A program made the translations under genes and the position numbers. Shown here in pieces: positions 10,301-64,000 of a DNA stretch of 64,000 bases; position 1 is the first letter of the stretch; each line of letters starts with the position of its first letter. Source of the DNA: an uncultured delta proteobacterium (GTDB lineage: Bacteria; Myxococcota_A; Polyangia; Fen-1088); NCBI GenBank assembly GCA_963767925.1, contig CAVYGB010000008.1, positions 448,001 through 512,000 on the forward strand. The letters run 5' to 3'. The notes under the pieces were generated by a model, which worked only from the letters and a program-made list of their open reading frames with translations, did not search any database and was not told where the DNA came from.

Positions 10301-12028
10301 GCGCAGCTCGGCCTCGCTGAGGGGGACGGGGGCGTCGGGGGGGATGGGGCCCGGCAGCCAGCCCAGCCGGTGGCCCTGCTCGCCCACCAGGCGGGCGGCG
10401 TCGGCTGGCGTGACCTCTTCACCGCCCAGCACCAGCGGGACGTATTCGGCGTCGCGGGCCGCCCGCAGCTCGCGGGTCAGGCGCTCGACCTCGTCGGAGA
10501 GCTGGCGCCGCTCCTTGGTGAGCGAATCCAGCTCGGCCGCCAGCCGCTCCTCGGTGCTGGTCGACAGCCGGTGGACGATGCCCCGCACGGCCTGCTCCAT
10601 CTGGGCCCGGCCCTCGAGGTCGTTGTCGAGGACCGACACGCACAGCGGGCGCAGCTCCTCCACGATCTGATCGCGCAGCACGCGCAGGGCCTTGGTGGTG
10701 TAGCTGGTGACGAGCACCCGCTTGCCGTGCGCCACCAGGTGCCCGACCAGGTTGGCGATGGTGTGGCTCTTGCCCGTGCCGGGAGGGCCCTGCACCAGGA
10801 CCGCCCCGTGGCGCTCGAGGGCCCGGGCGATCTCGATCTGCTCGGCGTTGGCCAGCTTGCTCAGCAGCAGGTCCTGGGTGCCGCCGCTCTGCCCGTCGCC
10901 CCAGGATCCCGGGCGGGGCTCGACGCCCACGATGCGGGTCAAGGCGGGGGGCAGCTCCTGCTCTCGATCGAGGTCCTCGAGCACCCGGTCGCAGGCCTCG
11001 GAGAAGCCGGCGGCCCGGTCGCGCACCAGCAGCCAGGCGTCGCGCACGATGACCGGTCCCTCGTGCTCGCCGGTCTCGTCGACGTCGGGGCGGAGCACGC
11101 CGGTCGGGCCGAGCTGCGAGACCAGCCGGCGCAGGAATACGCTCGTCTCGTCGCCGGCCAGGGGGTGAAAGCCGCCGGTCTCCAGCTCCTCTTGCAGCTC
11201 GTTGAGCTTGTCGCCCGAGAGGGTGCCGCCGGCCAGCAGCAGGGGGCCGGCCAGCTCGGCCGCCCGGTCGGAGTCGACCACCCGGAACTCGGGGATGTTG
11301 GGATCGAACACCAGATCCACCCGCTGCAGCAGGACGGGGTGATCGATGCGCCCCTCGGGCGTGGTCCAGAGCAGGCGGCCGTCGCCGAGCACGAGCTCGA
11401 TCCGCTCGCCTTCGCGTTCGATGTCGCTGTGGAGGGCGTAGAGCGCCTCGAACACCCGCATCGCCTCGCGGGCGGGGCGCTCCTCCTCGGCCCAGCGGTT
11501 CCAGGTGCGGGTCCAGGCGGCGAAGGCCCGGGTGCGGTTGGGGTCGTCGGCGAAACGCTCGGGGCCGACCTTGCTGCCGCGCACCCGGCGCGTGCGCATG
11601 TTCCAGACCGCGACCTTGCCGTCGGGACGTTCCCAGCCCTTGGCCACCCAGTCGGCCAGCAGGTCGGGCGGGGAGGGCGCCTTGGTGAGGGTCGGGCGGC
11701 GCACGCGCAGGAGCGGCTCGTTGAGGCGGCTGTCCTCCTCGTCGAAGATGCTGGTGGTCAACGTGCGGGAGCCGCCGGCCGTGCGCTCGCCGCGCAGCGT
11801 GACCGCGCCGACCCGGATGCTGGCGTGGCGGGGCAGGTCGCGGATGCGCAGCTTGCGCGGGACCTCGGCCAGCGAGCGCACGTTTGGCTCGCGCCGCTCC
11901 GCGAAGGCCCGCAGAAAAGAGAAGACCCTGCGAACCCGACGTCTTCCCTCCTCGTCCCGCCGGGCAGACGTGGGGCCCTGATCAAGGGCTGTTGACTCTA
12001 ATGTCACATGCGCCTCACACGGCCCCAT
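7313..12028 (-). CDS. Large SF1 (UPF1/DNA2-like) helicase with C-terminal Vsr/MTES_1575-like restriction-fold domain
   Basis: QGPPGTGKS, DEASQ, GDHEQ, LREHFRC, FQGDERD and NVGASRARD helicase motifs; SPFE...RIDIVV...RQAVLERVGWRF tail. Long helical insert. Exact start uncertain. Confidence 0.88.
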   Translation of the reverse strand: MGPCEAHVTLESTALDQGPTSARRDEEGRRRVRRVFSFLRAFAERREPNVRSLAEVPRKLRIRDLPRHASIRVGAVTLRGERTAGGSRTLTTSIFDEEDSRLNEPLLRVRRPTLTKAPSPPDLLADWVAKGWERPDGKVAVWNMRTRRVRGSKVGPERFADDPNRTRAFAAWTRTWNRWAEEERPAREAMRVFEALYALHSDIEREGERIELVLGDGRLLWTTPEGRIDHPVLLQRVDLVFDPNIPEFRVVDSDRAAELAGPLLLAGGTLSGDKLNELQEELETGGFHPLAGDETSVFLRRLVSQLGPTGVLRPDVDETGEHEGPVIVRDAWLLVRDRAAGFSEACDRVLEDLDREQELPPALTRIVGVEPRPGSWGDGQSGGTQDLLLSKLANAEQIEIARALERHGAVLVQGPPGTGKSHTIANLVGHLVAHGKRVLVTSYTTKALRVLRDQIVEELRPLCVSVLDNDLEGRAQMEQAVRGIVHRLSTSTEERLAAELDSLTKERRQLSDEVERLTRELRAARDAEYVPLVLGGEEVTPADAARLVGEQGHRLGWLPGPIPPDAPVPLSEAELRDLYASNDTISADEEQELGGRLPETGDLPHPNELRTDIELIQSKKRIESGRYWRRAPMQGDAASLANAKRAVEQLAGAIAALTPWQRQIVAAGHAGGSEEALWRQLGEQVRAAQSLWQEAKLLLLEHAPEIDPRVPRQGLSAVFAELHGRVISHRSLSGLTTLFRMNWRTVLEGCRVNGQPPREPDHFAALAALAEVEAARADLALRWSRQAEPAGLPAFATLPDPPEPTLAEYVQQFERLLGLWSERWAQTEPLLYALGLNWPAFRADEIARSTPSVPFESDLHIAAGPLRTALDERLQGVGRLESLRKLKALAERLGGWKLGVCQSLRQAVNELDPHAYEREYRRLDDLWRKTAVLKRRRELLAKVAQTAPQWAAALERRRGMHGAPIAPRDLASAWRWRQIEQELDRRAELDDRTLAGRLEAKQQQLREVTIELVDHSAWLAQLRRTGLESRQALIGWADTQRKIGKGTGKRAPALQRKARELLTRAREAVPVWIMPLARVAESFDARHAKFDVVIVDEASQCDLLGLLALSLGRGAVIVGDHEQVSPSAIGETVEDTQALISQFLGGIPNSHLYDGQTSVYDLARQSFGGTIGLREHFRCVPDIIEFSNQLSYNGEIRALRDPNAARRPHLVEYQVPPLLEPARRGKINDAEAKVVAALAAAAMSLPEYDNKTFGAISLLGDEQAGRIQELIQQLTPLADLDRRRFVSGNPAQFQGDERDVVFLSMVDVSDGNVLPMQERLSFKQRYNVGASRARDQLWLIHCLDPGRDLQAGDLRRRLIEHVRNPAVRTASPGMRPRAQSPFEAEVTERLRAQGYGIEPLVDIGGHRIDIVVSDGQRHVAIACEGDRLKSPERIAEDMARQAVLERVGWRFIQVRATQFFRDKDGIMDGVARELKRLGVEPLVDPPAPATGDASGENLRNKVIRKAWQIMREQEWITAEPEEQAAPTDTLSPLDAAVPGGTSEPYEDLLPEETTEPHFVILEQWEDLPEKV

Positions 12029-29345: not shown

Positions 29346-32705
<3,360 letters not shown>

Positions 32706-36745: not shown

Positions 36746-39445
36746 CTATTCCTCGCGGAGGGCGGCGCAGGGGTCGATCCGGGTCGCGCGGCGCGCGGGC
36801 AGCCAGGCCGCCAGCAGCCCGACCGCCATCAGCAGCAGCGTGACGGCGGTGAAGGCGATCGGATCGGTCGGCGTCACCCCGAACAGGAACCGCTGCAGCA
36901 CGCGCGTCACGCCGGCAGCCCCGGCGAAGCCGACGAGCAGGCCGGCGGCGACGATGAGGAACGCGCGCCCGAGCACGAGGCGGAGGACGTCGCGGCGGCC
37001 GGCGCCGAGGGCCATGCGCACGCCGATCTCGCGGCGGCGCTGGGTCACCGCATACGCCATCAAGCCGTAGATCCCGAACGTCGCGATCAGCGTCGCGGTC
37101 AGGGCGAACAGCGCCAGCAGCAACATCCGGAAACGCGGCTGCGCCAGCGACGCCGCCACCGCTTCGTCCATCGTCACCGTGCTCTCGATCGCCAGATCGG
37201 GCACCGCGCGGCGAATCTCGGCCCGGATACCCTCGATCACGCTGGCGGGGGTGGCCGTGCGGGCGACGAACGACACGAACCGCAGGAAGAAGGCGCCGGA
37301 CTCCTGCTGGAAGGGGACGTAGACCATGGGCTGTACCTCCTGATCGAGGCCCATCTGATGGATGTCCGCGACGACGCCCACCACCGTCCGCCACGCGTCG
37401 CCATCGCCCAGGCGCACGCGCCGGCCCAGCGCCGCGCCCGGACCACCGGGAAAATATTCGCGCACGATGCGGGCGCTGACGATCGCCACCTTCGGCGCCT
37501 CCGCCGTGTCCCGGGCGGTGAATTCGCGTCCCGCCAGCAGCGGAATCCCCATGGTCTTGAAGTACTCCGCGTCGATCTTCGGCCGGCCGGCGTCGAGCTC
37601 CGGCTTCGGCTGCCCTTCGATCTCGAAGTCGCTGCGGATGAACATCCGGCCGAAGGGCGCCGAGTTGATCAGGCTCGCGGACTTCACGCCCGGCAGATAG
37701 TGGATGCGATCGAGCACGCCCCGGGCGAAGGCCTGGATGCGCTCGGGCTGGTCGGAGAGCCGTTCGGGCAGCGTCACCTTGACGGTCTGCACGACGCCGT
37801 CGCGCCCGCGCGCTTCGAAGCCGGGCGACACCGACGTGAGGCGCACGAAGCTGTGAATCAGCAGGCCGGCGCCGATCAGGAGGACGAACGTCATCGCGAT
37901 CTGCGCGGCGACGAGCACCGTCCGCAGCCGCTCGCCCTGACTGTCACCCGTCGTGCGCGCGGCGCCCGCGTGCAGCGCGAGGCCTTCCCCGAACGCCACC
38001 CCGCTGACGCGCAGGGCGGGCAGCAGGCCGATCAGGAGCGTCGAGACCAGCGAAAGGCCGAGGCAAAACGCCAGCACCCGCCCGTCGATCACGATGCCGC
38101 CCAGGCGGGGAAACACGGAGGGCGGCACCAGCGGCAGCGTGACGTGGATCGCGATCTGGGCGAGCAACACGCCGAGGGTCGCGCCGCCCAGGGACAACAC
38201 GACCGCCTCCGTCAGCAACTGACGCACGATCCGCCGGCGTCCCGCGCCGAGGGCCATGCGGACGGACAGCTCGCCCCGGCGGGCGGTGAGGCGGGCCATC
38301 TGCAGGTGCGCGACGTTGACGCAGGCGATCAGCAGCACGAACGACACCGCCCCGAGCAGGATGAGCAGCAGCGTGCGCACCGACTCCGATCCGTAGGCCC
38401 GCAAGTCGACCACGCGCGCGAGCCGGCGGACGTTCGGGGCGAAGGCGCCTTCGAGCCCGAGGGCCCCGGCGGGGGCCACCGACGGATCGTTCACCAGCGC
38501 GGTCAACTCCGCTACCGCGCGCTCCCGGGTCAGGCCTGGCTTCAGGCGGCCCAGCAGGAAGAGAAACGCGCTCTGGCCGGTGTCGCCGGGCCAACGATTG
38601 GGCAGGAAGATGTCCGCTTCCGGCAGCGCGCCCTTCCGGATCACCGGCCGGAAGCTGAAGTCCGGCGGCAGCACCCCGACCACGGTGCGGGGGAGGCCAT
38701 CGAGGGTGATGGACCTTCCGACGATCGCGGGATCGGCGGCGAGCGTCGTGCGCCAGAGGCGATCGCTGACGATGGCGCTGCGGTCGTCCTGTGGCGCGGC
38801 GGCGCCGGTGAAGAAGGCGCGGCCGCGCGCGGGGCCGACGCCCAGGGTGGCGAAGAAGTTCGGGCTCACCTCGACCGCGGGCACCAGCAGCGGCTCGCCG
38901 CGTCCGGTGAGGGGCGCGTCGATCGGGGCGTAGGCCGCGAGCTGATCGAGCGCGCTGACGCGCGTGCGCAGCGCCTCGTACGACACGGGCGGCCAGGTGG
39001 AGAACGTCCTGAGTCCCGTCCCGGTCTGCTGCGAGGACGAGACGATGACGAGGCGATCGGCAGCGGGATAGGGCAGCGGACGCCAGAGCACGCCGTAGGC
39101 GACGGAGACGATCGCGGTGTTGAGGCCGATGCCGAGCGCGAGGGTGGCGAGGGCGGTGAAGGTGAACGCCGGGGCGCGCCCCATCAACCGGAGCGCGTGA
39201 CGCACGTCCTGGGCGAACGTCTCGACCGTCGCGAAGATCCAGGGATCGCGGGCCTGCTCGCGCAGCCGCAGCGGACTGCCGATCCGCCGCCGGGCGGCCG
39301 TCCGCGCCTGGTCGCCGCTCAAGCCCTCCGCCTCGGCCAGGGCGTCCGCCTTCATCTCCTCGTGAAAGCGCAGCTCGTCGTCCAGATCCCGATCGAACTG
39401 CTTCCGCCGGAAGAAGAACAGCAAACGTCGGAGCAGAGAACCCAC
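36746..39445 (-). CDS. Duplicated MacB/FtsX-type ABC permease (ADOP family)
   Basis: LDDELRFH prefix, QDVRHALR, LALGIGLNTAI, LLIACVNVA, two RMALGA repeats and PARRA..IDP..ALR terminus. AGGAGG RBS. Confidence 0.93.
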   Translation of the reverse strand: MGSLLRRLLFFFRRKQFDRDLDDELRFHEEMKADALAEAEGLSGDQARTAARRRIGSPLRLREQARDPWIFATVETFAQDVRHALRLMGRAPAFTFTALATLALGIGLNTAIVSVAYGVLWRPLPYPAADRLVIVSSSQQTGTGLRTFSTWPPVSYEALRTRVSALDQLAAYAPIDAPLTGRGEPLLVPAVEVSPNFFATLGVGPARGRAFFTGAAAPQDDRSAIVSDRLWRTTLAADPAIVGRSITLDGLPRTVVGVLPPDFSFRPVIRKGALPEADIFLPNRWPGDTGQSAFLFLLGRLKPGLTRERAVAELTALVNDPSVAPAGALGLEGAFAPNVRRLARVVDLRAYGSESVRTLLLILLGAVSFVLLIACVNVAHLQMARLTARRGELSVRMALGAGRRRIVRQLLTEAVVLSLGGATLGVLLAQIAIHVTLPLVPPSVFPRLGGIVIDGRVLAFCLGLSLVSTLLIGLLPALRVSGVAFGEGLALHAGAARTTGDSQGERLRTVLVAAQIAMTFVLLIGAGLLIHSFVRLTSVSPGFEARGRDGVVQTVKVTLPERLSDQPERIQAFARGVLDRIHYLPGVKSASLINSAPFGRMFIRSDFEIEGQPKPELDAGRPKIDAEYFKTMGIPLLAGREFTARDTAEAPKVAIVSARIVREYFPGGPGAALGRRVRLGDGDAWRTVVGVVADIHQMGLDQEVQPMVYVPFQQESGAFFLRFVSFVARTATPASVIEGIRAEIRRAVPDLAIESTVTMDEAVAASLAQPRFRMLLLALFALTATLIATFGIYGLMAYAVTQRRREIGVRMALGAGRRDVLRLVLGRAFLIVAAGLLVGFAGAAGVTRVLQRFLFGVTPTDPIAFTAVTLLLMAVGLLAAWLPARRATRIDPCAALREE

Positions 39446-39468
39446 GGCACCTCCTGGGAGTCAGGACA

Positions 39469-39813
39469 CTACGTCGTCTTCATCACGCGCATGATCGCGC
39501 CGAACATCTCGGAGAGCCGCGACTCCTCGAGGCCGAGCTGCTTCTTTCCGGTAGACGTGAGCGTGTAGAAGCGCGCGCGCCGGTTGTTCGCCGAGAGCTT
39601 CCACCTGGCCAGCACCCATCCCTTGACCAGCATCCGCTGCAGGGCCGGATACAGCGATCCCTCTTCGATCTTCAGCACGTCCGCCGACAGGAGCTGGATG
39701 TGCTGGGCGATGCCGTAGCCGTGCATCGACTCGATCGACAGCGTCTTGAGAATCAACATCTCGAGGGTGCCGGGAAGCAGCTCGTTCTTGCCCTTGGCCC
39801 TGGTTTCTTTCAT
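39469..39813 (-). CDS. PadR-family transcriptional regulator (type typically found upstream of ADOP permeases)
   Basis: GTLEMLILKTL, HGYGIA, EEGSLYPALQR and NNRRARFYTLT..GKKQL. Confidence 0.95.
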   Translation of the reverse strand: MKETRAKGKNELLPGTLEMLILKTLSIESMHGYGIAQHIQLLSADVLKIEEGSLYPALQRMLVKGWVLARWKLSANNRRARFYTLTSTGKKQLGLEESRLSEMFGAIMRVMKTT

Positions 39814-51986: not shown

Positions 51987-53198
51987 ATGGACCTGACACG
52001 GACGTTCGCCGGTGACCCCGGGTCATCGGCGTCCGCCGCTAAGACCACGTTCCAGGATGGGCTGGTGTGCTCCCCGGTCTCACCGCTGGTCGACCTGCGG
52101 CGGACCTGCATCCGGGTAGCCGCCACCCAGGCGACGGTGCTCCTGACCGGGGAGACGGGCACCGGCAAGGAGGTCTTCGCCCGGCTCATCCACGCCAACA
52201 GCCCGCGGGCCAAGCACCCCTTCGTGCCGGTCAACTGCAGCGCCATCCCCGAGGCCCTGCTGGAGAGCGAGCTGTTCGGGTACGTCAAGGGGGCCTTCAC
52301 CGGCGCGACCCATCCCCGCCGGGGGCGGGTGGCGCTGGGCGAAGGTGGCACCCTCATGCTCGACGAGATCGGCGAGCTGCCCCTGGGCCTGCAGGTCAAG
52401 CTGCTGCGCCTGCTGCAAGAGCGCACCTACGAGCCGGTGGGCAGCTCGGAGTCAGTGGTGGCCGACTTCCGCCTGGTGGCCGCCACCAACCGCAACCTCG
52501 TCGAGGAGGTGCGGCTGGGCCGCTTCCGCAAGGACCTCTACTACCGCCTCAATGTCTGCCCCATCCACCTGCCGCCGCTGCGCGAGCGGCGGGGCGACAT
52601 CGCCGAGCTGTTCTTTCACTTCTGGCAAGGCCGCGGCGAGCGCCGCGAGATCGACGCCGCCGTGATCGAGCGCCTGCAGCTCTACGAGTGGCCGGGCAAC
52701 GTGCGCGAGCTCGAGAACCTCGTCGAGCGGCTGTCGGTGATCGCCGAGGGGGACGTGATCCGGCTGGAGGATCTGCCCTCGCCGCTGTGGGAGCCGGTCG
52801 AGCACGCGGAGTCGAGCTCGCTGGAGACCACCTCGCTGCTGACCAGCGGCTACTCGATCGCGGTGCCGCCGGCCTCGACGCCGGAGCCGAGCTTCCCCTT
52901 CGAGCGGCCGCTCCCCCTGACCACCCCGACGCCGGCCCCCCTGGATCCGGAGGGGGTGCGCGAGCTCCTCACCGACGCCGAGGGGGGGACGCCCCGCCCC
53001 GAGGTGCTGCCCCGGCCCCACCTGGCCTTACCGGTAGACCTGCCTGGCTACCTGCGCGACCTGGAGAAGGCCTACATCGACGAGGCCCTGACCCAGACGG
53101 GAGGCAACAAGAAGGAGGCCGCCCGCCTGCTGGGAATGGGGCGCACGACCCTCGTCGAGAAGCTCCGCCGCCGCAACGCCGGCACGTCAGCGGCCTGA
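51987..53198 (+). CDS. Sigma54-dependent enhancer-binding protein lacking an N-terminal sensor domain (FleQ/FlrA-like by position)
   Basis: [33 protein letters not shown] and [10 protein letters not shown]; Fis-type [23 protein letters not shown]. Confidence 0.93.
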
Positions 53199-53255: not shown

Positions 53256-54617
53256 GTGACCATCGCCGCAGCGCTGCTCCTGACAGGCTGGCTGGCCGCC
53301 GAGGCTCCCGGCGAGGCCGCGGGGTCCCCCGACCCGACCGTGCCCCTCGTGCTGACCGCCGAGCGGCTGGCGCTACCCCGCCTGCGCGGCCCGCTCGAGC
53401 TGCGGGTGGACGCCCTGGGGGCGGCGATCGAGCTGCAGGCCCCGCGCGATCTCGGCGCCCTGGCGGCGGCCGTGGCCCGGGGGGCCCGCAACATCTGCCC
53501 GAGCTGGGAGGTCGGCGAGGGCCGCATCGTGCTCCGCTGTCGAACCCGGCGGCTGCGCGCCCGGGTGACCGGCGAGCGCAAGGGCGGGCAATTCCTCGAC
53601 CTGCAGGAGCTGCGAGGGCTGCCCCGGGACGAGGAGGTCGACCGGCTCGACCTGTTTTACGATCCGATCCCCGCCGGTCTCGGTGGCCCCTGCCCGGGGA
53701 CCACGCCGGGGGTCCAGGCCGAGTGCAGCTTGCGCGACGGCAAGACCGACCAGGCAGAGGCCCTGTTCCGGCAGGCGCTGGTGGGCGCTGACCAGACCAT
53801 GGCGGTGCTGCGGCTGGGGGATCTCGCGGCCGCCCGCGGCGACTTCCCGGGGGCGGCGCTCATGTGGAGTCGGGCGGGCTCGCGGGGGCCCTTCGGACGG
53901 CTGGCCGCCACCCGGGTCTGTGAGCTGAGCGGGTCCTGTCTGGGCAGCAAGGATCCCGGGCGGCTGTTCGACGCCGGCGAGGTGGCGGAGCCGATGCGGA
54001 CCGAGCTGGCCATACGCGGCGCCCGCGCCGAAGCCTTCGTGGGGAGGCTGCAGGCGGCCGTGCTCCGCCTGCGGGCGATGGTGGCGCTGGGATCGGTGAG
54101 CGGCGGCTGCGTGACGGTGGGGGCCCACATGTGCCGGCGCGTGCTGCAGGTGGCGGTGGAAGAAGGCGATCCCGAGGTCGCCCGCCTGGCCATCGAGGTC
54201 TACCTGTCGCTGCCCGACCGCGAGGAGGGCCCGGACAACGTGACCCTGGCGCGAATCGTCGCGGAGCGGGCGTTGCGGCTGGGCGCGCCCGCCTTCGCGG
54301 CCAACCTGCAGGCCTCGGTGGCCGCCGCGGTCTCCGACAAGGAGATCCCCGAGCACCTCCTGCGCACCGCCGAGCTCTATCTGCTGAGCGGAGACGGCGC
54401 CCGCGCCCAGCTCATCGCCGACTACGCCGACTCGCGCCTGACGCCCGGCCAGCTCCGCAGCCGGCGCTGGGCGCAGGTGCGGCGGACCCTCCTCGAGATG
54501 GCCCAGTCCTCGCCCAACGATCTCCGCCTCGCGCGCGAGCTGATCGAGGGCGAGGCGGCGCGCGACCTGGCCGACGCCATGATCTCGCTCTCGCGCGCCC
54601 GGACGCGGCAGCCATGA
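53256..54617 (+). CDS. Secreted TPR-like helical protein upstream of flgB
   Basis: Signal-like N-terminus, several Cys, and Ala/Leu helical repeats (AEALFRQAL..LRLGDLA..RGD). Confidence 0.55.
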   Translation: MTIAAALLLTGWLAAEAPGEAAGSPDPTVPLVLTAERLALPRLRGPLELRVDALGAAIELQAPRDLGALAAAVARGARNICPSWEVGEGRIVLRCRTRRLRARVTGERKGGQFLDLQELRGLPRDEEVDRLDLFYDPIPAGLGGPCPGTTPGVQAECSLRDGKTDQAEALFRQALVGADQTMAVLRLGDLAAARGDFPGAALMWSRAGSRGPFGRLAATRVCELSGSCLGSKDPGRLFDAGEVAEPMRTELAIRGARAEAFVGRLQAAVLRLRAMVALGSVSGGCVTVGAHMCRRVLQVAVEEGDPEVARLAIEVYLSLPDREEGPDNVTLARIVAERALRLGAPAFAANLQASVAAAVSDKEIPEHLLRTAELYLLSGDGARAQLIADYADSRLTPGQLRSRRWAQVRRTLLEMAQSSPNDLRLARELIEGEAARDLADAMISLSRARTRQP

Positions 54618-54653: not shown

Positions 54654-54669
54654 TGGCATGACGTTGGCA
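54654..54669 (+). promoter_or_regulatory. Sigma54 (-24/-12) promoter of the flagellar operon
   Basis: TGGCATGACGTTGGCA has exact GG-N10-GC spacing, 14 bp before the flgB ATG, with an EBP gene nearby. Confidence 0.72.
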
Positions 54670-54683
54670 ATGGGTTCCCGGCC

Positions 54684-55013
54684 ATGAGGATCTTCGACGC
54701 TACTTTGACTATTCTCGAGCGGTCCCTCGACGTACGCCTCGCGCGCCACAGCGCGCTCTCCGGGAATCTCGCCAATATCGACACGCCCGGGTACGTGCCC
54801 AAAGACATCGATGTGACGGACGCGATGGTGAGCGGCGAACCCGCCGCCCTCGCGGTGAGCGCGGCGATGATCACCGGGGAGCGGGACAGCGTCGATCTCG
54901 ATCGCACGATGGCCACCCTCGCCGAAAACGGCATGCAATACGGGGCCGGCGCGCGGGCGGCTGGCAAGAAGCTGGCGATCCTGCGCTACGTGGCCACCGA
55001 CGGCAACGGCTAG
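54684..55013 (+). CDS. flgB: Flagellar basal-body rod protein FlgB
   Basis: NLANIDTPGY.PKD and VDLD..MA.LAEN.MQY. Confidence 0.93.
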   Translation: MRIFDATLTILERSLDVRLARHSALSGNLANIDTPGYVPKDIDVTDAMVSGEPAALAVSAAMITGERDSVDLDRTMATLAENGMQYGAGARAAGKKLAILRYVATDGNG

Positions 55014-55028
55014 TCAGGGAGGTGACAC

Positions 55029-55439
55029 ATGGACTTTTTCACGGCTTTGCGAATCAGTGGCTCGGGGCTGTCCGCGGAACGCACGCGGGTCAACATCGCG
55101 GCTTCGAACCTGGCCAACGCGGAGACGACCCGGACCGCGCAGGGTGGGCCCTACCGCCGCCTGGATCCGGTGTTCAGCCCGGTGCAGGTGACCGACATGC
55201 CCGAGGGGCCCGAGGCGGTGCAGGTGACCCGCATCGTGAGCGACGACTCGCCCGGCCGGCGGGTCTATAGCCCCGGGCACCCCGACGCCGACGACGACGG
55301 CTACCTCAGCTTGCCCAACGTCAACCCGATCCACGAGGTGGTCAACCTCCTGTCGGCCTCGCGCGGCTACGAGGCCAACTCCACCGCGGTGGAGACCCTC
55401 AAGCAGATGGCCGGCCGGGCCCTGGACATCCTGCGCTGA
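55029..55439 (+). CDS. flgC: Flagellar basal-body rod protein FlgC
   Basis: ISGSGL.AER, SNLANAETTR..GGPYRR, PGHPDA, PNVN and ASRGYEAN. Confidence 0.97.
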   Translation: MDFFTALRISGSGLSAERTRVNIAASNLANAETTRTAQGGPYRRLDPVFSPVQVTDMPEGPEAVQVTRIVSDDSPGRRVYSPGHPDADDDGYLSLPNVNPIHEVVNLLSASRGYEANSTAVETLKQMAGRALDILR

Positions 55440-55451
55440 GGGAGGTGACCC

Positions 55452-55865
55452 ATGGCCAGTGAAACCGAGCTCCGGCTGATCAGCCCGATCGAGTCCGTCG
55501 GTCCGCAGCGGCTGCTGCAGCCCAAGATCTCTCCCCTCGCCGAGGGGTTCTCCAGCGAGCTGGGCCACGCCATCCAGGGGCTGGAGAGCCGGCGCCCGGA
55601 TCCCGCGGTGGCCCCGGTCGAGGCCATGCCCGGGGTGGGCGAGGTCGGCGAGGGCTTCGGCGGGCAGATCAAGCAGGCCGTCCGGGCCCTCGACGACCTG
55701 CAGCTCGCCGCCGACCGCCAGGCCGACGCCGTGGCCCTCGGCTCGGGCAACCTGCACGAGACCGCCATCGCCTTCGAGAAGGCCGACGTCGCCATCCGTC
55801 TGGCCAGCCGCATCCGCAACAAGATCGTCGAGGCTTACAACGAGATCATGCGGATGAGCGTGTAG
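55452..55865 (+). CDS. fliE: Flagellar hook-basal body protein FliE
   Basis: LHET.IA.EKA...IRNKIVEAYNEIMRM. Confidence 0.95.
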   Translation: MASETELRLISPIESVGPQRLLQPKISPLAEGFSSELGHAIQGLESRRPDPAVAPVEAMPGVGEVGEGFGGQIKQAVRALDDLQLAADRQADAVALGSGNLHETAIAFEKADVAIRLASRIRNKIVEAYNEIMRMSV

Positions 55866-55869
55866 AGGT

Positions 55870-57435
55870 ATGGAACCTCTCTTCAAACAGCTTCGCGAGC
55901 TGCCGGCGCGCTTCGCGGCCCTCGCCGCCGGCACCCGCTACCTGCTCGCCGGCGGCGCGGCGCTGGTGGTGCTGGCGGTGGCCGTCTGGATCACCCTCCG
56001 GGGTGACGGCAGCTACGAATACGCCTTCAGCAACCTCACGCCCGAAGACAGCAGCGAGGCCTCGGCGGTGCTCAAGGGGGCGGGGATCCCCTTCCGGGCC
56101 GAGGCGGGCGGCACCGCCCTGGCGGTGCCGGCCGGGCGGGTGCACGAGGTGCGGCTGATGCTGGCCGCCTCCGGCCTGCCCCGCGGCGGAGGGGTCGGCT
56201 TCGAGATCTTCGACCGCGGCGATCTCGGCGTCTCCGAGTTCACCCAGAAGGTGAACCTGCGGCGGGCCATCGAGGGGGAGCTGGCCCGCACCATCTCCCG
56301 GTTGGGTCCGGTGCGCTCGGCGCGGGTGCACATCAACCTCCCGGAAAAAGGCGTCTACAAGAACGAGGACCGCAAGGCCACCGCGGCGGTGGTGCTGAAC
56401 CTGCAGCCGGGCCGGGTGGTCGAGGAGCGTGAGCTGGCCGGCATCCGCCACCTGGTCTCGGCGGCGGTGGCGGGGCTGTCGCCCGACGCGGTGGCGGTGA
56501 TGGACGGGCGGGGGACCGTGCTGGCCGGGGAGCGCGCGGAGGGGGAGAAGCAGAGCTCGGTCCAGCGCGACATGGAGGCCTCGCTCGAGGAGCGCCTGCG
56601 CGACTTGCTGGAGCCGGTGGTGGGCCGGGGCGGGGTGGTGGCCAAGGTGACGGCCACCCTCGACTCCCGTGAGGTCTCGACCACCGCCGATGCCTACGAC
56701 CCGGAGAGCGCGGTGGTGCGCAACGAGCGCAAGACCACCGAGCTGACGACGGCCGACAGCGACTCCCGCCCGGGAGTGGCGGGGGCGGCTTCCGTCGATC
56801 CGCCGGAGGCGGTGGGCGGCCCGGTGGGCAAGCGCCACCAGAGCAGCCGCGAGGACACCCAGAAGAGCTACGACATCAGCAAGACGACAACCCAGACGGT
56901 GTCGCGCACGCCCCGGCTGGTGCGGCTGTCGGCCGCCCTGCTGATCTCGAGCGTGGAGGGCAAGCCCCGGCCCGAGGCCGAGCTCAAGCGCCTCTCCGAC
57001 CTGGCCAAACACGCCATCGGCTTCGACGCCGAGCGGGGCGATCAGCTCGAGATCTCGAGCGCCCCCTTCGTGCAGGACCCCGAGACGGCGGGGGTGACGG
57101 CGCCCATCTGGCAGCGGCCGGAGCTGGTGCGCTACGGGACGGGAGGGCTGATCGCCCTGCTGGCCCTGGCCGCCTTCTTCATCTTCGTGATGCGGGGCCG
57201 CCGCCGGTTCAGCTCGGCCGAGCTGGCGATGATCAAGCCCGGGTCCAAGGTGGCCCAGATCGAGGCGGAGATGCGGCGAACCGAGACCGCGGCGGTCGAG
57301 GGCGCGGCGGCGAACAAGGCGCTCGCCAGCCAGACCCGGGCCCGCCAGCTCGTGGAGGCCGATCCAGCGCGGGCGGCCCACCTGCTGCGGGCCTGGATCG
57401 CCACCGACAGCGAGGCAGGAGAGCGCGGTGGCTGA
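55870..57435 (+). CDS. fliF: Flagellar MS-ring protein FliF
   Basis: GLP.GGGVGFEIFD...GVSEF, RAIEGELARTI, SARVHI, GFDAERGD and two TMs. Confidence 0.96.
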   Translation: MEPLFKQLRELPARFAALAAGTRYLLAGGAALVVLAVAVWITLRGDGSYEYAFSNLTPEDSSEASAVLKGAGIPFRAEAGGTALAVPAGRVHEVRLMLAASGLPRGGGVGFEIFDRGDLGVSEFTQKVNLRRAIEGELARTISRLGPVRSARVHINLPEKGVYKNEDRKATAAVVLNLQPGRVVEERELAGIRHLVSAAVAGLSPDAVAVMDGRGTVLAGERAEGEKQSSVQRDMEASLEERLRDLLEPVVGRGGVVAKVTATLDSREVSTTADAYDPESAVVRNERKTTELTTADSDSRPGVAGAASVDPPEAVGGPVGKRHQSSREDTQKSYDISKTTTQTVSRTPRLVRLSAALLISSVEGKPRPEAELKRLSDLAKHAIGFDAERGDQLEISSAPFVQDPETAGVTAPIWQRPELVRYGTGGLIALLALAAFFIFVMRGRRRFSSAELAMIKPGSKVAQIEAEMRRTETAAVEGAAANKALASQTRARQLVEADPARAAHLLRAWIATDSEAGERGG

Positions 57436-58456
57436 TTCTCGATCGGATGGACGGGGCGGCGATCCCGTCGGGCTGGGCGCCCGGCGGGCGGCGGCGGTGC
57501 TGGTGGGGCTGGGCCGGGACACAGCCGGCCAGGTGTTCCGCCAGCTCGACGAGGCGACGATTCGCCAGCTCGCCCTCGGGGCGCGCGAGCTGCGGCGCAA
57601 TCCCAACCTGGTGGCCGAGGCGCTCGACACCTTCGTCCAGGCGATGGAGAGCCTGGTCGGAGACGCCGCCGCCAGCGACGGCCTCCTGCGCGAGTTCGCC
57701 ACCCGGGCGCTGGGCCCCGAGGCGGCCCGGCGGGCCTTCGACGGGGTGGCTGCCCCCCCGCCTGTCGATGAGGTGCTGGGCCCGGTGGCCCAGGCCGACG
57801 CCGAGGCCCTGGCCATGATCCTCGGGCGCGAGCAGCCGCAGACGGTGGCCCTGGTGCTGGGGTCGCTCGAGCAGCAGCGGGCGGCCGCCGTGCTCAAGCT
57901 CTTGCCCGAGCGGTCCAAGCCGCAGGTGCTGCGCCGGCTGGCCACCCTCGAGTCGGTGGCGCCCGAGGTGCTGCGCGAGGTGGGTCAGGCCCTCTCGTCG
58001 GAGCTGCGGGCGGCCCACGGCGGCGGCACCCGCCGGGTGGACGGCAAGGCGGCCGCGGTGTCGCTGCTGCGGCGCTGTCCCGCGGTGCAGCAGACCGAGG
58101 TGGTGGGCGAGATCGAGAAGGACGATCCCGAGCTGGCCACCGAGCTGCGCACGAAGCTCTTCACCTTCGAGGATCTCGTCAACCTCACGGACCGGGACAT
58201 CCAGACCTTCCTCCGGGAGATCGACAGCGCCCGGCTCACCGTGGCCCTCAAGGGGGCCAGCCCGTCGGTCACCGCCAAGGTGTTCAAGAACATGTCGAGC
58301 CGGGCGGCCGAGATGCTCAAGGACGAGATCGCGGCCATGGGGCCGGTGCGGGTTGCGGCGGTGGAAGAGGCCCAGAACGAGCTCGTCAAGACGGCGTTCG
58401 CCCTGGCGGAGCAGGCCCGCATCACGCTGGTCGGCCCCGCGGACAAGATGGTCTAG
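57428..58456 (+). CDS. fliG: Flagellar motor switch protein FliG
   Basis: EQPQTVALVL, LFTFEDL, ALKGA and NMSSRAAEMLKDE..MGPVR. Confidence 0.96.
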   Translation: MADSRSDGRGGDPVGLGARRAAAVLVGLGRDTAGQVFRQLDEATIRQLALGARELRRNPNLVAEALDTFVQAMESLVGDAAASDGLLREFATRALGPEAARRAFDGVAAPPPVDEVLGPVAQADAEALAMILGREQPQTVALVLGSLEQQRAAAVLKLLPERSKPQVLRRLATLESVAPEVLREVGQALSSELRAAHGGGTRRVDGKAAAVSLLRRCPAVQQTEVVGEIEKDDPELATELRTKLFTFEDLVNLTDRDIQTFLREIDSARLTVALKGASPSVTAKVFKNMSSRAAEMLKDEIAAMGPVRVAAVEEAQNELVKTAFALAEQARITLVGPADKMV

Positions 58457-59161
58457 ATGGCGGCGCCCCCCTTCAAGCCCCGGCGTCCCAGCTTCATGGG
58501 TCAGGCCGATCCGGCCGTGCCCCAGATCCGGCGCGCCTTCATGCCCGCAGAGTCGGACCAGGTCGGCGAGCCCCTGCCGGTGGTCTCGGCCGAGGTGGTG
58601 TCCAGTGTGCCGGTGCTGGGGTCCGGCCACCCGTCGATGGCCCTGCCGGCGCCGCCGTCCCCGCCCCCGCTGTTGCCCCCGCCGACGGGGCCGGGGTCGG
58701 CGCCCGCGGACGCGGCCGCTCACGCCGACGCGCAACGCCTGGAGCACGCCCTCGATCGCCTGCAGATGCTGGGCGATCGGCTGGCGGCCGAGGCCCGGGC
58801 CGACGCGGTCGAGGTGGCGCTGCTGGTGGCGCGCAAGATCGTGGAGGGGGAGCTGGAGGTCAACGTCGACCGCTTCCTGGCCATGGTGCGCTCGGCGGTG
58901 CGCCGGCTGGGTGAATCCCGGCGGGTCGTCATCCGCCTGGCCCCCGCCGACGCCGAGGTCGTCGAGTCGATGCGCCAGCGCAACGGCGGCGAGCTGGCCG
59001 GCTTCAGCTCGATCCAGATGGAGATCACGGCCGACCCAACCCTCAAGCGCGGCGACGTCGTCGTGGAAGGCGATCTGGTGGCCATCGACGGACGACTCGA
59101 CACGCGGATGGCAGAGATGCGGCGGGCCCTGGCCGAGCAGGCCATGGAGGAGACGACGTGA
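58457..59161 (+). CDS. fliH: Flagellar export protein FliH
   Basis: Position between fliG and fliI; VARKIV, IRLAPAD and ADPTLKRGDVVVE....IDGR. Confidence 0.85.
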   Translation: MAAPPFKPRRPSFMGQADPAVPQIRRAFMPAESDQVGEPLPVVSAEVVSSVPVLGSGHPSMALPAPPSPPPLLPPPTGPGSAPADAAAHADAQRLEHALDRLQMLGDRLAAEARADAVEVALLVARKIVEGELEVNVDRFLAMVRSAVRRLGESRRVVIRLAPADAEVVESMRQRNGGELAGFSSIQMEITADPTLKRGDVVVEGDLVAIDGRLDTRMAEMRRALAEQAMEETT

Positions 59162-60599
59162 GCCTACTGGACGTGAGCCGCATCGAGCGGGCCCTGGTCG
59201 ACCTCGATCCGGTGGCGGTCTCCGGCCGGGTCACCCGGGTCTCGGGGATCGTCGTCGAGGCGGCCCTGCCCCAGGTGGCGGTGGGCACCTCCTGCGAGAT
59301 TCATGCGGTGGGGGGCAAGATGATCGCCTCGGAGGTGGTGGGATTCGTCGGGGCCCACGCCCTGCTGATGCCCTTCGGCGAGGTCAAGGGCATCGGCGAG
59401 GGCTGCGCGGTCCGACCCCGCACCAGCGCCGGGGAGATCCTGGTGGGCCAGGCCCTGCTGGGGCGGGTGGTCAACGCGGCGATGGTCCCGCTCGACGGGC
59501 TGGCGCCGCTGCACCTTGCGCTCGCGGGTGCCCCTGCACGCCGCGCCTCGCCGCGGCCATGGGCCGGCGGCGGATCGCCGCCCCGCTCGAGCTGGGGATC
59601 CGGGCCCTCGACGCCTTCCTCACGGCGGGCGAGGGGCAACGGCTGGGGATCATGGCCGGCCCGGGGGTGGGCAAGAGCGTGCTGCTGGGGATGTTGGCCC
59701 GCAACGCCGCCGCCGACGTCATCGTGGTGGGGCTGGTGGGCGAACGGGGCCGCGAGGTGCGCGAGTTCGTCGAGCGGGACCTGGGCCCCGAGGGCCTCCG
59801 CCGCTCGGTTGTGGTTGTCGCCACCGGCGACGAGTCGCCGCTGGTGCGGGTGCGGGCGGCGATGGCCGCCACGGCGGTGGCGGAGTTCTTCCGCGAGCGG
59901 GGCAAGAAGGTGCTCCTGCTGGTGGACTCGCTGTCCCGGGTGGCGATGGCCCAGCGGGAGATCGGGCTCGCGGCGGGCGAGCCGCCCACCTCGCGCGGGT
60001 ACCCGCCCTCGGTCTTCGCCCTGCTGCCCCGCCTGATCGAGCGGGCGGGCAACGACGCGGGACCGGGGAGCATCACGGCCCTCTACACGGTGCTGGCGGA
60101 GGGCGACGATCTCAACGAGCCGGTCTCCGACGCGGCCCGCGCCGCCCTCGACGGTCACGTCGTGCTGTCGCGCAAGCTGGCCAACGCGGGCCACTTCCCC
60201 GCCATCGACGTGCTAGCCAGCATCAGCCGGGTGATGACCGACGTGGTGACCGCCGGTCACAAGGAGCTGGCCCTCAGCGCCCGCGAGCTGCTGGCGGCTT
60301 ACCGCGAGTCGGCCGACCTGATCGAGGTGGGGGCCTACGCGGCGGGGAGCAATCCCCGGGTCGATCGGGCCATCCGCTGCCGGGATACCCTGAGCGCCTT
60401 CCTCCGCCAGCGCGGCGACGAGCGGCCGGCGCTGAGCCAGACGCTGAGCGAGCTCAAGCGGGCCCTGGCCCCCGCCGGCGGCCCGGCGCCGGGCGCGCCC
60501 GGCGTCGCGGGGATGCCGGGATTCCCGGGCGCGCCGGGAGCCACGGGAGCGTCCGGAGTCCCGGGCGCGCTGGGAGGAGGCAAGCCAGACCATGTTTGA
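59158..60599 (+). CDS. fliI: Flagellar export ATPase FliI, interrupted by apparent frameshift(s) at about 59515-59548
   Basis: First frame has GRV.RV.G, EVVGF and LLGRV. A later frame has GIRALD, GQRLGI.AGPGVGKS, GERGREV, DSLSRVAMAQRE and GHFPAID. Confidence 0.93.
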
Positions 60600-61356
60600 G
60601 ATCTTGATACCGCTCTGCCTGCTGCTCACCTCGGAGGGGCCTCCCCCGGCCCAGCCGGCCCACGGAGAGGCGAAGGGCGAGGCCGCCAAGAAGGAGGCCG
60701 CGCCACCCCGCAAGGCCCCCGAGCCGCCGCCGGCGGGCAAGAGCGACAAGGCCGAGGGCCGCGCGGCGGCGCACGCGCCCGGGCGCCCGGGCGACAAGCC
60801 CGCCACCGAGAAGCCACCGGGCGAAAGGCCGGTCCCGCCGACCTTGACCGGGACCGCCTTCCGGCAGGAGCTGTCCCAGGGCAAGCGGGTGGGCGACCTG
60901 GAGCACCCGCCCTCCGAGCGGGAGCGGATGCAGAACCTGGCCGCCGACCTGGCCCGGACCCGCGAGGCCCTCCGGGCCGAGACCGCCCGGCTGGAGGCCT
61001 TGATTCGACAGGCGCCCGCGGAGGCTGGCCGGCCGGTGGGATCACCCGCGACCGGCGCCGCCCCGCCGGCCCCCCTGGGGTTGGGTCCGCCGGGTGGTCG
61101 TCCGGTCGACCCCAGCCAGGTCGAGCTCGTCGCCAAAACCTTCCGGGGGATGAAGCCCGAGCAGGCGGCGGCCCTCATCGGCCACCTCGATCGGGCACTG
61201 GCCGCCGAGGTGCTGGCCCGCATGCGCCCGCCCGACGCCGGGGCGATCCTCGGCCTGCTCCGGCCCGAGCTCGGCGCCGCCTTGACCACCGAGATGGCCA
61301 ACCGGCCGGCAGCGGCTGGCGGCGGCAAGAAGAAGGCCGAGAAGGGGACACCATGA
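60592..61356 (+). CDS. MotE/FlbB-like (MgtE N-terminal-like) flagellar protein
   Basis: N-terminal hydrophobic segment, coiled coil, and K.F..MKPEQAA.....LD...A..VL..M....AG.IL repeat. Confidence 0.78.
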   Translation: MFEILIPLCLLLTSEGPPPAQPAHGEAKGEAAKKEAAPPRKAPEPPPAGKSDKAEGRAAAHAPGRPGDKPATEKPPGERPVPPTLTGTAFRQELSQGKRVGDLEHPPSERERMQNLAADLARTREALRAETARLEALIRQAPAEAGRPVGSPATGAAPPAPLGLGPPGGRPVDPSQVELVAKTFRGMKPEQAAALIGHLDRALAAEVLARMRPPDAGAILGLLRPELGAALTTEMANRPAAAGGGKKKAEKGTP

Positions 61357-62423
61357 ATCCAGCACGTGGTCCGGGACCTGCCGGAGCTTCGCGGGCGTCT
61401 CACGGCGAGGGCGTGGGCGGCGGGCGGGGGTCCAAGGGCGCGCGGGGTCCCAAGGCTCCCGACTTCGCCAAGATGCTGAACGAGCCCGCGCAGGCCAGGG
61501 CCGGCGAGGACGCTCCGGACGAGCCCGAGGTGTCGGAGATGAGCGCGGGCGAAGACGGGATGGCCGCCACCGGGGTCCAGCGGGGCAACGCGCAGGGCCG
61601 GGACGAAGAGACCGATCAGGACGAGACCACCGAGGCCGAGCTCGGTGGCGAGGGGTCGCCCGATCGCTACTTCGGGCCCCAGGTGCCCGAACTGCCCGAG
61701 AAGCCCGAGGACGGTGAGAAGGGCGACAAGGGGGAGGGCGGTCCGGGCCGAGGGGGGCCGGGGAACCGGTCCGAGCAGCCACGGTTCGGGCTGCCTGCGC
61801 GGTCGGAGCCGGCCGGCCAGGCCGCGCCGCCCGGGTTCTCGGTGACCAGAGGGTCCGCGGGCGCAACGAGCAACGAGGCGCCCGGCCGGTCGTCGCCGCC
61901 AGCGAAGGGTCCCCGCGCCGCCGAGCCCGGGGCGGAGTCGTCCGCGCTGCTCGAGCTGTCGGGCTTCCGCGGCCTGAGCGGGCCCCCGCTCGAGACCGCG
62001 GCCAACGCTCCGCCGCCGCCGCTGCCACCGGCGGGCGCGTTCCTGCTGGAGCAGGCCGTGCGGGACGAGGGCTTGATGGTGGCGGTGCTGCCCCGGGCGG
62101 CCCACATCTCCATCCAGACCGACGATGGCCGGGCCCTCGAGCTGCATCTGCGGCTGTCGCCCGAGGGGGCCCATATCCGGGCCTCGGGCGCGCTGGCGCC
62201 GATGATCGGCGCCCAGCTCCCGGCCCTGGGGCTCGAGCTGGCCGCGCAGGGCTTGACCCTCAGCGGCTTCGAGCTGGGCGGTGGCGAGCGCCGCTCCGGT
62301 CTCGACCCCGAGCCGGCCGATGAAGACGCGGGCACGTCCCGTTCGGTCCGCCCGCTGGCGGCCGCGGCTGCCGAGCCCGCTCCGGCGGCACCGTTGCCGG
62401 GGCGCATTCACCTCAAGCTCTGA
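61353..62423 (+). CDS. fliK: Probable flagellar hook-length control protein FliK
   Basis: Low-complexity acidic/Pro-rich N-terminus; compact C-terminal domain (L.L.L......L...LAAQGL.L); lies immediately before flgD. Confidence 0.65.
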
Positions 62424-62434
62424 AAGGAGAGGCG

Positions 62435-63124
62435 ATGAATTCAGCGAACAACACGGGGCGGGTCGAGGGCCAGACCATCGGCCGGGGCAACGAGATCCCC
62501 ACCGCCGGCTCGAACACGCTCGGCAAGGACGAGTTCCTCCGCCTGCTGATGACCCAGCTCTCGCAGCAGAATCCCACCTCGCCGGCGAGCAGCGAGGCCT
62601 TCGTGGCCCAGCTCGCGCAGTTCGCCAGCCTCGAGCTGGCCCAGAGCACGAACGCCCGCCTGGAGAGCCTGCTGCTGGCCCAGGCGGCGGCCAACCAGAC
62701 GGCGTTGACCGGCTTCGTGGGCAAAGACGTCACCTTCCGCACCGACGGGCTGACGCTGGAAGCGGGGCTGCCGGCCAGCTCCGCCGCCCACCTCGACGGG
62801 CCGGCCAAGAGCGTGACCGCGGTGATAAGCGACGCCCAGGGCAAGACCATCCGAACCCTGCAGCTCGGCCCCCAGGCGGCCGGCGTGCTGGCCATCGGCT
62901 GGGACGGGCGCGACGACCGGGGCAACACGATGCCCCCGGGGTCGTATCGCCTGCGGGTGACCGCCGTCGATGCGGCGGACAAGAGTGTGGGCGTGGAGCA
63001 ACGGGGGACCGGGCACGTGACAGGCGTGGCCTTCGAGAACGGCACCGCTCAGTTGAAGGTCGGTGATCTGACCGTGAAGGTCGCGGACGTTCTGGAAATC
63101 AAGGAAAGGACAACAGCACCATGA
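62435..63124 (+). CDS. flgD: Flagellar hook cap protein FlgD
   Basis: [27 protein letters not shown] and WDGRDD.G..MPPGSY. Confidence 0.96.
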
Positions 63125-64000
63125 GTCTATTGACGGCACTGTATTCGGGAGCCAGCGGCATCGACAACAACAGCACCGAGCTGTCGGTGGTCGGCGACAA
63201 CATCGCCAACGCCAACACGGTCGGCTTCAAGGCCAGCCGCGCTTCCTTCGCGGATGCGGTGGCCCAGACGCTGGTGGGTGGGTTGCCCACCGGGGGTGGG
63301 CAGCGCGGAATGGGCGTGCGGCTCCAGTCCGTGCAGAAGATCCTCACCCAGGGCTCGCTGCTCAACACGGGGGTGTCGACCGACTTCTCCATCCAGGGCG
63401 GCGGGCTGTTCGTCGTGCGGGACAACGTGAGCGGCCAATCGATGAACACCTATACCCGGGCGGGACAGTTCACGGTGAACGCCCAGGGCCTGCTGGTGAA
63501 CCTCGACGGCCTGCCGGTCCAGGGCTACCTGGCCGACGCGGCCGGGCTGGTCAACACCGCCTCGCTGGGCGATCTGCCCCTCGGCAGCATCAGCGATCCG
63601 CCCCGGCCCACCGCCAACGTCGCGATGCGGGCCAACCTGCAGTCGGACGCCGCGATCCCGGCGCTGCCCTTCGATCCCCTGGCGGCGGCGACGACCTCGA
63701 ACTTCTCCTCGAGCACGACGGTGTACGACTCGCTCGGCAAGCCCCACCAGGTGGACACCTACTTCCGCCGGACGGGGGTGGGCACCTGGGAGTGGCACGG
63801 GCTGACCGACGGGGGGAACCTGACCGGCGGCGTCCCCGGGACGCCGACCGAGATCGCGACCGGCACCCTGACCTTCGACGCCCAGGGGCGCCTCGCGGCC
63901 AACACCGCGACCAGCAACTTCAGCCCCCTCAACGCCACCAGCCCCCAGGCGCTGACCTTCGACTTCGGGACCCCGGTCGGCGGCGGGGGGACCGGCCTCG
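63121..64000 (+). CDS. flgE: Flagellar hook protein FlgE (3'-partial; absent from the ORF track)
   Basis: Manual translation: [14 protein letters not shown]...[36 protein letters not shown] and VYDSLG..H. ATGA overlap with flgD. Confidence 0.95.

Follow-up and report, generated by a model that had tools for sequence, protein, structure and literature searches.

In the textbook picture, myxobacteria move by gliding and are not swimmers. Bacillus subtilis and Borrelia burgdorferi have "fla" operons with the gene order flgB-flgC-fliE-fliF-fliG-fliH-fliI, a gene for a YlxF/FlbB-type MgtE_N protein, fliK, flgD, flgE, flbD and motA-motB. The same order is found in a flagellar locus of an uncultured bacterium (assembly GCA_963767925.1, here G000), which lies in a stretch of 64,000 nucleotides (nt) that was analysed as a whole and is referred to as the window (G000:C8:448001-512000, C8 being the 3.3-Mb contig of the host assembly). 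The locus differs from the two "fla" operons in having a predicted sigma-54 promoter with an adjacent activator gene, in the presence of L/P-ring genes, in the lack of fliJ between fliI and the FlbB-like gene, and in the position of the fliL-to-flhF half, which is inverted and ~65 kb away. We consider it very probable that the region is the class II operon, coding for basal body, export ATPase and hook, and that it belongs to a complete flagellar regulon which its Myxococcota host inherited vertically.

Another described system comes from the same phylum. Anaeromyxobacter dehalogenans 2CP-C, likewise one of the Myxococcota, has a large clustered regulon with motA, motB and fliC, and the accessible text of Thomas et al. 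(2008; PMC2330069) gives a flagellar cluster of 55.7 kb for Anaeromyxobacter, reports swimming in strain K and argues for an ancient origin of the cluster rather than a recent import, as we do here. The two systems were compared by gene layout: as far as that text goes, strain 2CP-C has no recognizable fliJ, and in G000 none reaches the Pfam cut-off, whereas the chemotaxis genes that Anaeromyxobacter carries between motAB and the fli genes are matched in G000 by HDOD/GGDEF genes, ParA-like genes and a putative glycosylation island.

The eleven genes of the operon are packed tightly on the plus strand between window positions 54684 and 64000, with intergenic spacings of -8 to +15 nt. They are listed below in window coordinates (aa, amino acids); Pfam identities, here and throughout, are matches above the curated cut-offs unless said otherwise.

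54684..55013, plus strand: flgB, proximal rod protein, 109 aa (Pfam and NCBIfam matches below cut-off, alignment with relatives)
55029..55439, plus strand: flgC, rod protein (Pfam Flg_bb_rod and Flg_bbr_C)
55452..55865, plus strand: fliE (PF02049, 74.5 bits)
55870..57435, plus strand: fliF, MS-ring protein (YscJ_FliF 182 bits, YscJ_FliF_C 119 bits)
57428..58456, plus strand: fliG, rotor protein with charged C-terminal helix (FliG_N, FliG_M, FliG_C)
58457..59161, plus strand: fliH (PF02108, 66.6 bits)
59158..60599, plus strand: fliI, export ATPase, frame-broken in the assembly (ATP-synt_ab 280.5 bits, T3SS_ATPase_C)
60592..61356, plus strand: FlbB/YlxF-like protein (MgtE_N 24.0 bits, under the cut-off of 25.9)
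61353..62423, plus strand: FliK-like protein (hook-length control), 356 aa (position and weak similarity)
62435..63124, plus strand: flgD, hook cap (FlgD, FlgD_ig, FLgD_tudor)
63121..64000 (window edge), plus strand: flgE, hook protein, 433 aa in full (Pfam)

A preliminary description of this DNA had named the series from flgB to flgE as one contiguous, packed operon with host-like GC. Order and packing hold and so does the GC content (0.71-0.76 in the operon, 0.68-0.77 over the whole window), with the reservation that fliI is not one open frame; among the proposed gene names, flgC, fliE, fliF, fliG, fliH, flgD and flgE are backed by matches above cut-off, whereas flgB, motE/flbB and fliK are sub-threshold. 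FlgB reaches 18.1 bits in Pfam (cut-off 20.7) and 54.8 bits with NCBIfam TIGR01396 (cut-off 59.05), and it aligns end to end with the FlgB of relatives, only a variable linker of ~36 aa being missing. The FlbB/YlxF-like protein consists of a hydrophobic N-terminal segment, a Pro/Ala-rich linker and an MgtE_N-like domain, and its gene is kept at the same position in 12 same-family loci. For the FliK-like open reading frame (ORF), no Pfam match was obtained at E<=0.01 (only Flg_hook, E=0.19); its counterpart in a relative (locus L010, 970 aa) matches Flg_hook with E=2.7e-4, and its C-terminus resembles the homologue in 5 of the 13 same-family loci. Because it is based on position and weak similarity, the name "fliK" is tentative. 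FliG carries the motif NMSSRAAEMLKDE in its charged C-terminal helix, as had been described. The last gene, flgE, ends beyond the window at C8:512422 (window-equivalent 64422).

The ORFs downstream of the window were called by third-position GC, and 65 of them were scanned against Pfam. Past the window end the operon continues with the rest of flgE, flbD, motA and motB, and ~46 kb further on, on the minus strand of the same contig, there is a second cluster. It comprises fliS, fliD, fliC, flgL, flgK, flgI, flgH, a weak FlgA-like ORF, flgG and flgF, followed by fliA, flhG, flhF, flhA, flhB, fliR, fliQ, fliP, fliO, fliN, fliM and fliL (FlhG was added by a search separate from the 65-ORF scan). 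Rod and hook are represented by FlgB, FlgC, FlgF, FlgG and FlgE together with the hook cap FlgD; rotor and stator by FliG with its charged helix, FliM/FliN and MotA/MotB; the filament by a flagellin with N and C domains, the FliD cap, the FlgK/FlgL junction and the FliS chaperone. The genes of the L/P rings are in the second cluster. As to the export apparatus, FlhA, FlhB, FliP, FliQ, FliR, FliO and FliH were found, FliI is frame-broken and FliJ is represented only by a match below cut-off. Since filament, stator, rod, hook and L/P rings are all encoded, we read the gene set as that of a full flagellum and not as a relic or an injectisome. This agrees with the preliminary description, which had set the operon apart from injectisomes by its rod and hook genes and had named fliC, motAB, flhAB, fliPQR and flgKL as genes to be looked for; all of them are in the genome, and the relic that would have followed from a lack of fliC or motAB is not what was found. 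The genome also encodes PilT, a component of the type IV pilus.

Sigma-54-dependent master regulators of flagellar genes are FleQ/FlrA in Pseudomonas and Vibrio and FgrM in Geobacter. Upstream of flgB, G000 has the following features:

51987..53198, plus strand: sigma-54 enhancer-binding activator with AAA+ and Fis-type helix-turn-helix domains (Sigma54_activat 220.9 bits, AAA_lid_14, HTH_8)
53256..54617, plus strand: protein with a weak TPR-like match, between activator and flgB (TPR_16 E=0.005, below cut-off)
54654..54669, plus strand: predicted sigma-54-type promoter, TGGCAT-N5-TGGCA (read from the sequence; GG-N10-GC spacing kept)

As with FleQ/FlrA and FgrM, an AAA+ activator with a Fis-type helix-turn-helix adjoins the early flagellar genes that it presumably switches on; unlike FleQ-type regulators, it has neither an N-terminal FleQ domain nor a receiver domain, its AAA+ domain beginning at residue 36. 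It falls below every specific NCBIfam cut-off (e.g., FlbD, 273 bits against 750; FlgR is also among the matches), and a homologue immediately precedes flgB in 10 of the 13 same-family loci. The protein encoded between activator and flgB has homologues in the same position only in L008 (genome G012) and L011 (G010). A scan for the canonical promoter (TGGCAC-N5-TTGC, <=1 mismatch) gave nothing near flgB, and the promoter was found by reading and by its conservation: [T/C]GGCA[C/T]-N5-TCGCA is present upstream of flgB in 12 of the 13 same-family loci, degenerate in the 13th, and visible in 2 of the 6 same-class loci. The genome contains rpoN, and the three elements of a sigma-54 class II operon (the -24 GG/-12 GC promoter, the adjacent activator and rpoN) are found together.

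In the mechanism that we propose, the receiver-less activator would switch on the sigma-54 promoter, which would drive flgB through flgE and probably also flbD-motA-motB. The second cluster would supply the export gate, C-ring, distal rod, L/P rings and hook junction as well as the flagellin, the cap, FliS, sigma-28 (FliA) and FlhF/FlhG, and between the two clusters there is a putative sugar island of the sialic-acid type, which also encodes a Maf-like protein. If these genes are expressed and their products assembled, the predicted structure is a MotAB-driven, probably polar, glycosylated swimming flagellum.

Flagellin glycosylation islands with Maf proteins are known from Campylobacter, Helicobacter and Aeromonas. 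The island of G000 (C8:530000-558500) adjoins fliS-fliD-fliC. It carries genes for NeuB, a CMP-sugar cytidylyltransferase and a UDP-GlcNAc 2-epimerase as well as for three DegT aminotransferases, together with radical SAM genes and a gene for an MptE-like (Maf-type) protein of 771 aa, a content that suggests a role in flagellin glycosylation; unlike in the known islands, several of its genes look frame-broken in the assembly. The flagellar clusters are also flanked by genes for four HDOD proteins (one REC-HDOD, two HDOD-GGDEF, one HDOD alone) and two ParA/MinD-like ATPases, at C8:514376-523646 and C8:580405-581997, and a PAS kinase gene also follows motB. Through the HDOD and ParA-like genes, motility may be tied to c-di-GMP signalling or to cell positioning. 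In fliO (C8:577033-578247), which encodes 404 aa, the FliO domain covers only residues 268-318, and no Pfam family matches the long extension that precedes it; the accessible part of a FliO survey lists domain-bearing FliO proteins in Myxococcota, some with LysM or AMIN (PMC12248157).

The identity of the host was examined with a marker domain and with RpoB. Matches over the cut-off to MYXO-CTERM (TIGR03901), a signal that to our knowledge, from the family description, is limited to myxobacteria, number 22 in G000, where they are spread over six contigs including C8, and 12 in another member of its family (G015). The two genomes G042 and G043, labelled "Archangiaceae bacterium" and "Deltaproteobacteria bacterium", have 23 and 50, and none were found in two Acidobacteriota genomes (G423, G424) or in 14 control genomes. 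RpoB, compared over the C-terminal 607 aa of one partial gene, is 81-90% identical within the family, 71-73% within the class, 70-72% to G042 and G043, and 63-64% to the two Acidobacteriota. For SAR324, Desulfobulbus, Nitrospiraceae and Bacteriovoracaceae the values are 57-65%, a range that covers all five of the other phyla compared. The RpoB tree places the Acidobacteriota, along with the rows for Nitrospiraceae and SAR324, across a branch with support of 97, although one Bacteriovoracaceae row, on a long branch, is placed within the Myxococcota-side group. By these markers the host is one of the Myxococcota, with a large genome.

An ADOP duplicated permease (TIGR03434, 818.7 bits) is encoded beside a padR_acidobact regulator (TIGR03433) on the minus strand of the window (36746-39813), and 7 ADOP copies of full length, besides fragments, are present in the genome, members of families that were named for Acidobacteria and occur here in Myxococcota. 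The Acidobacteriota host that these genes bring to mind was rejected, RpoB being only 63-64% identical to that of the Acidobacteriota genomes, in which MYXO-CTERM is absent.

The history of the locus was traced by synteny and by trees of FliF and FliG. The order from flgB to motB is identical in the 10 same-family loci whose stretches span flgB through motB, and synteny from the activator through motB is kept in these 10 loci and largely in the same-class loci. A FastTree phylogeny of concatenated FliF and FliG was built from 65 rows, which were selected from 100 loci (FliF and FliG on one strand, FliF query span of >=330 aa; four dropped by hand). It shows the family as one clade (support 97) with a metagenome-assembled genome (MAG) labelled "Myxococcota bacterium" as its sister (100), and the next clade adds six same-class rows, from six other families, and one more labelled genome (95). 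IQ-TREE (LG+G4, short search, 37 rows picked from the 65) gave 98, 100 and 99 for the same three groupings, with the long-branch labelled genome L046 left outside. The more distant the relative, the lower the FliF identity: it is 49-64% inside the family and 30-42% for most of the other families in the class. The trees argue for inheritance and against recent import.

A separate RpoB tree of the family is only partly resolved, and it neither contradicts nor strongly confirms the FliF and FliG topology. Four FliF-negative genomes (G002, G011, G016 and G006) stand beside FliF-positive genomes in this family tree, which therefore indicates several losses. Two matches come from short contigs. In the FliF and FliG tree, an additional FliF/FliG pair of one same-class genome (L022 in G039, contig of 3,079 bp) groups inside Burkholderiales and is likely bin contamination, the contig being so short. 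A fliG among the matches listed, from a MAG titled "Candidatus Bathyarchaeota archaeon" (L094, contig of 1,857 bp), is almost certainly bacterial DNA that contaminates the archaeal bin.

Two other explanations were weighed against inheritance of a complete system. It is highly improbable, in our judgement, that the flagellar genes were recently imported from another phylum or that the contig is chimeric or contaminated. Such an origin could account for the FliG of the family being 30-34% identical to same-class sequences compared with 35-38% to Synergistota, Nitrospirota and Acidobacteriota (among the matches listed), for the long stem branch (0.67-0.76) that carries the family and L028, and for the "acidobacterial" ADOP and PadR families in the window. 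Yet in the trees the family groups, with support of 95-99, with six further families from its own class, synteny of the cluster is kept in the 10 genomes of the family mentioned above, and the GC content of the operon is host-like. The highest FliF identity sampled anywhere is 64%, and it is found within the family; because no sampled FliF exceeds this value, there is no visible recent donor. A chimeric contig is unlikely because rpoB and five MYXO-CTERM matches are on the contig of the operon, which also carries rpoN. The assignment to a Myxococcota lineage, the inherited rather than newly imported flagellum and the integrity of the contig, all put forward in the preliminary description or named there as points to be checked, are supported by these data.

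Several further observations count against an intact flagellum, or against the details of our account. As assembled, fliI is spread over three frames: the N-terminal domain (frame of 59158), an RVPLHAAP stretch, and the ATPase domain (frame of 58353-60599), with two apparent single-base frame shifts that both fall within ~59515-59560; the FliI of relatives matches both pieces, and intact relatives read DARVPVHALAPRAMTRRRI across the break. The FliK-like protein has 356 aa, a third of the length in relatives (~970 aa). No fliJ was found at the Pfam cut-off, and the best candidate scores 24 bits against 28.4 and is on the opposite strand. This ORF (C8:568962-569453, plus strand, 163 aa) lies between flgF and fliA, which are on the minus strand; its third-position GC of 0.93 is coding-like and 120 of the 123 FliJ profile positions are matched, although at the same threshold the FliJ model also matches archaeal control genomes, and the ORF may be the missing fliJ. 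Between the -12 GC of the predicted promoter and the flgB ATG there are 15 nt, so that almost no leader is left, and there is no Shine-Dalgarno sequence. The nearest relative, G012 (L008), is equally short (13-15 nt in both genomes), whereas other family members have a GGAG motif and a distance of 25-45 nt; in this sub-lineage, flgB may have a nearly leaderless transcript. G001, which is the one further genome in the genus, has no FliF, FliG_C or FlgH match. Finally, the class and phylum names rest on record titles and a marker domain.

Taken as decay, these features would describe a flagellar system with a truly shifted fliI, a truncated FliK and a lost fliJ, heading to the flagellum-less state of many of its relatives, an explanation that we regard as improbable, though less so than import. 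Two breaks in fliI within ~40 nt are in line with it, and FliF is missing not only in G001 but in all genomes of two genera of the family (g2, 0/26; g11, 0/8), with FliG_C and FlgH in none of five FliF-negative family members, including G001. The assembly itself speaks against it. G000 (9.34 Mb, 71% GC, 13 contigs) has a completeness of 83.8% and a contamination of 5.0%, and other conserved genes are split in the same way: rpoB (G000:C8:2030930-2034994) into three frame pieces, rpoN (C8:278763-279240) into two and a pilT paralogue (C8:2043960-2044995) into two, while in the sugar island several genes are cut short or overlap one another in different frames. These split genes point to widespread consensus insertion and deletion errors, which help explain the completeness value. 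We read the fliI shifts as an artefact because rpoB and rpoN, which are essential, are also broken and because a completeness of 83.8% was reached in only 13 contigs; the break is probably an assembly error (consensus insertion/deletion), of a kind to be expected from the assembly alone. All flagellar genes other than fliI, moreover, give near full-length profile matches (e.g., FlhA 1-654/657, FlgI 1-343/343). The absences in G001 are weak evidence because that genome is 86% complete and is also without an rpoB match. In Anaeromyxobacter, fliJ and fliK are both unrecognizable and strain K nevertheless swims, according to the accessible text (PMC2330069). We therefore retain the complete, inherited regulon as the best explanation of the locus.

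In the preliminary description the rarity of such a find was overrated. At E<=1e-30, FliF is encoded in 42 of the 88 other genomes of the order, which consists of a single family, and in 151 of the 401 genomes (74 of 162 genera) of a class sample that includes G000; in a phylum sample, again with G000, the FliF C-terminal domain at E<=1e-10 is present in 160 of 401 genomes and 124 of 255 genera. The proportion is ~40% in both the class and the phylum sample. Within the family, the pattern tracks genera: in addition to the two negative genera g2 and g11, FliF was found in 8/13 genomes of g8, 9/11 of g16, 5/5 of g9 and 5/5 of g15.

There is precedent in the literature as well, as far as the accessible text of each source goes: flagellar assembly is encoded in Myxococcota MAGs from Zodletone (10.1101/2021.07.06.451402), flagellum and pilus genes were among the highest expressed in a seamount study that pooled 23 Myxococcota and 12 Bdellovibrionota MAGs (PMC11937823), and a 2026 preprint with a GTDB-wide flagellar map counts Myxococcota among the motile phyla (10.64898/2026.06.16.732483). 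The operon is real but ordinary, a trait already documented in many uncultured Myxococcota, and the point itself is not new, since flagellar genes of this phylum were reported in 2008 and later in MAG studies. With FliF in ~40% of the sampled Myxococcota, the picture of gliding-only myxobacteria reflects the cultured few. What the locus adds is a clean contiguous example on a 3.3-Mb contig with a conserved sigma-54 promoter, and the family-wide pattern of repeated loss could be of use in studying the exchange of one motility system for another.

On a broader proposal we are evenly divided, namely that the flagellum would be ancestral to the class, perhaps to the whole phylum Myxococcota, and would have been lost many times, with at least three to four losses within the family, one of them possibly inside the genus of G000. 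If this were true, the cultured myxobacteria that glide without flagella would be the derived exception, and large-genome, MYXO-CTERM-bearing myxobacteria would combine swimming with pilus-based surface movement.

Elsewhere in the window, a 1571-aa helicase-like protein is encoded at 7313-12028 on the minus strand; its matches to the anti-phage families ProA and Hhe (DUF4011) are far under the cut-offs, and its gene may have a role in defence. At 29346-32705, also on the minus strand, trehalose synthase (TreS) and maltokinase are fused in one protein of 1119 aa, each half of which matches above cut-off.

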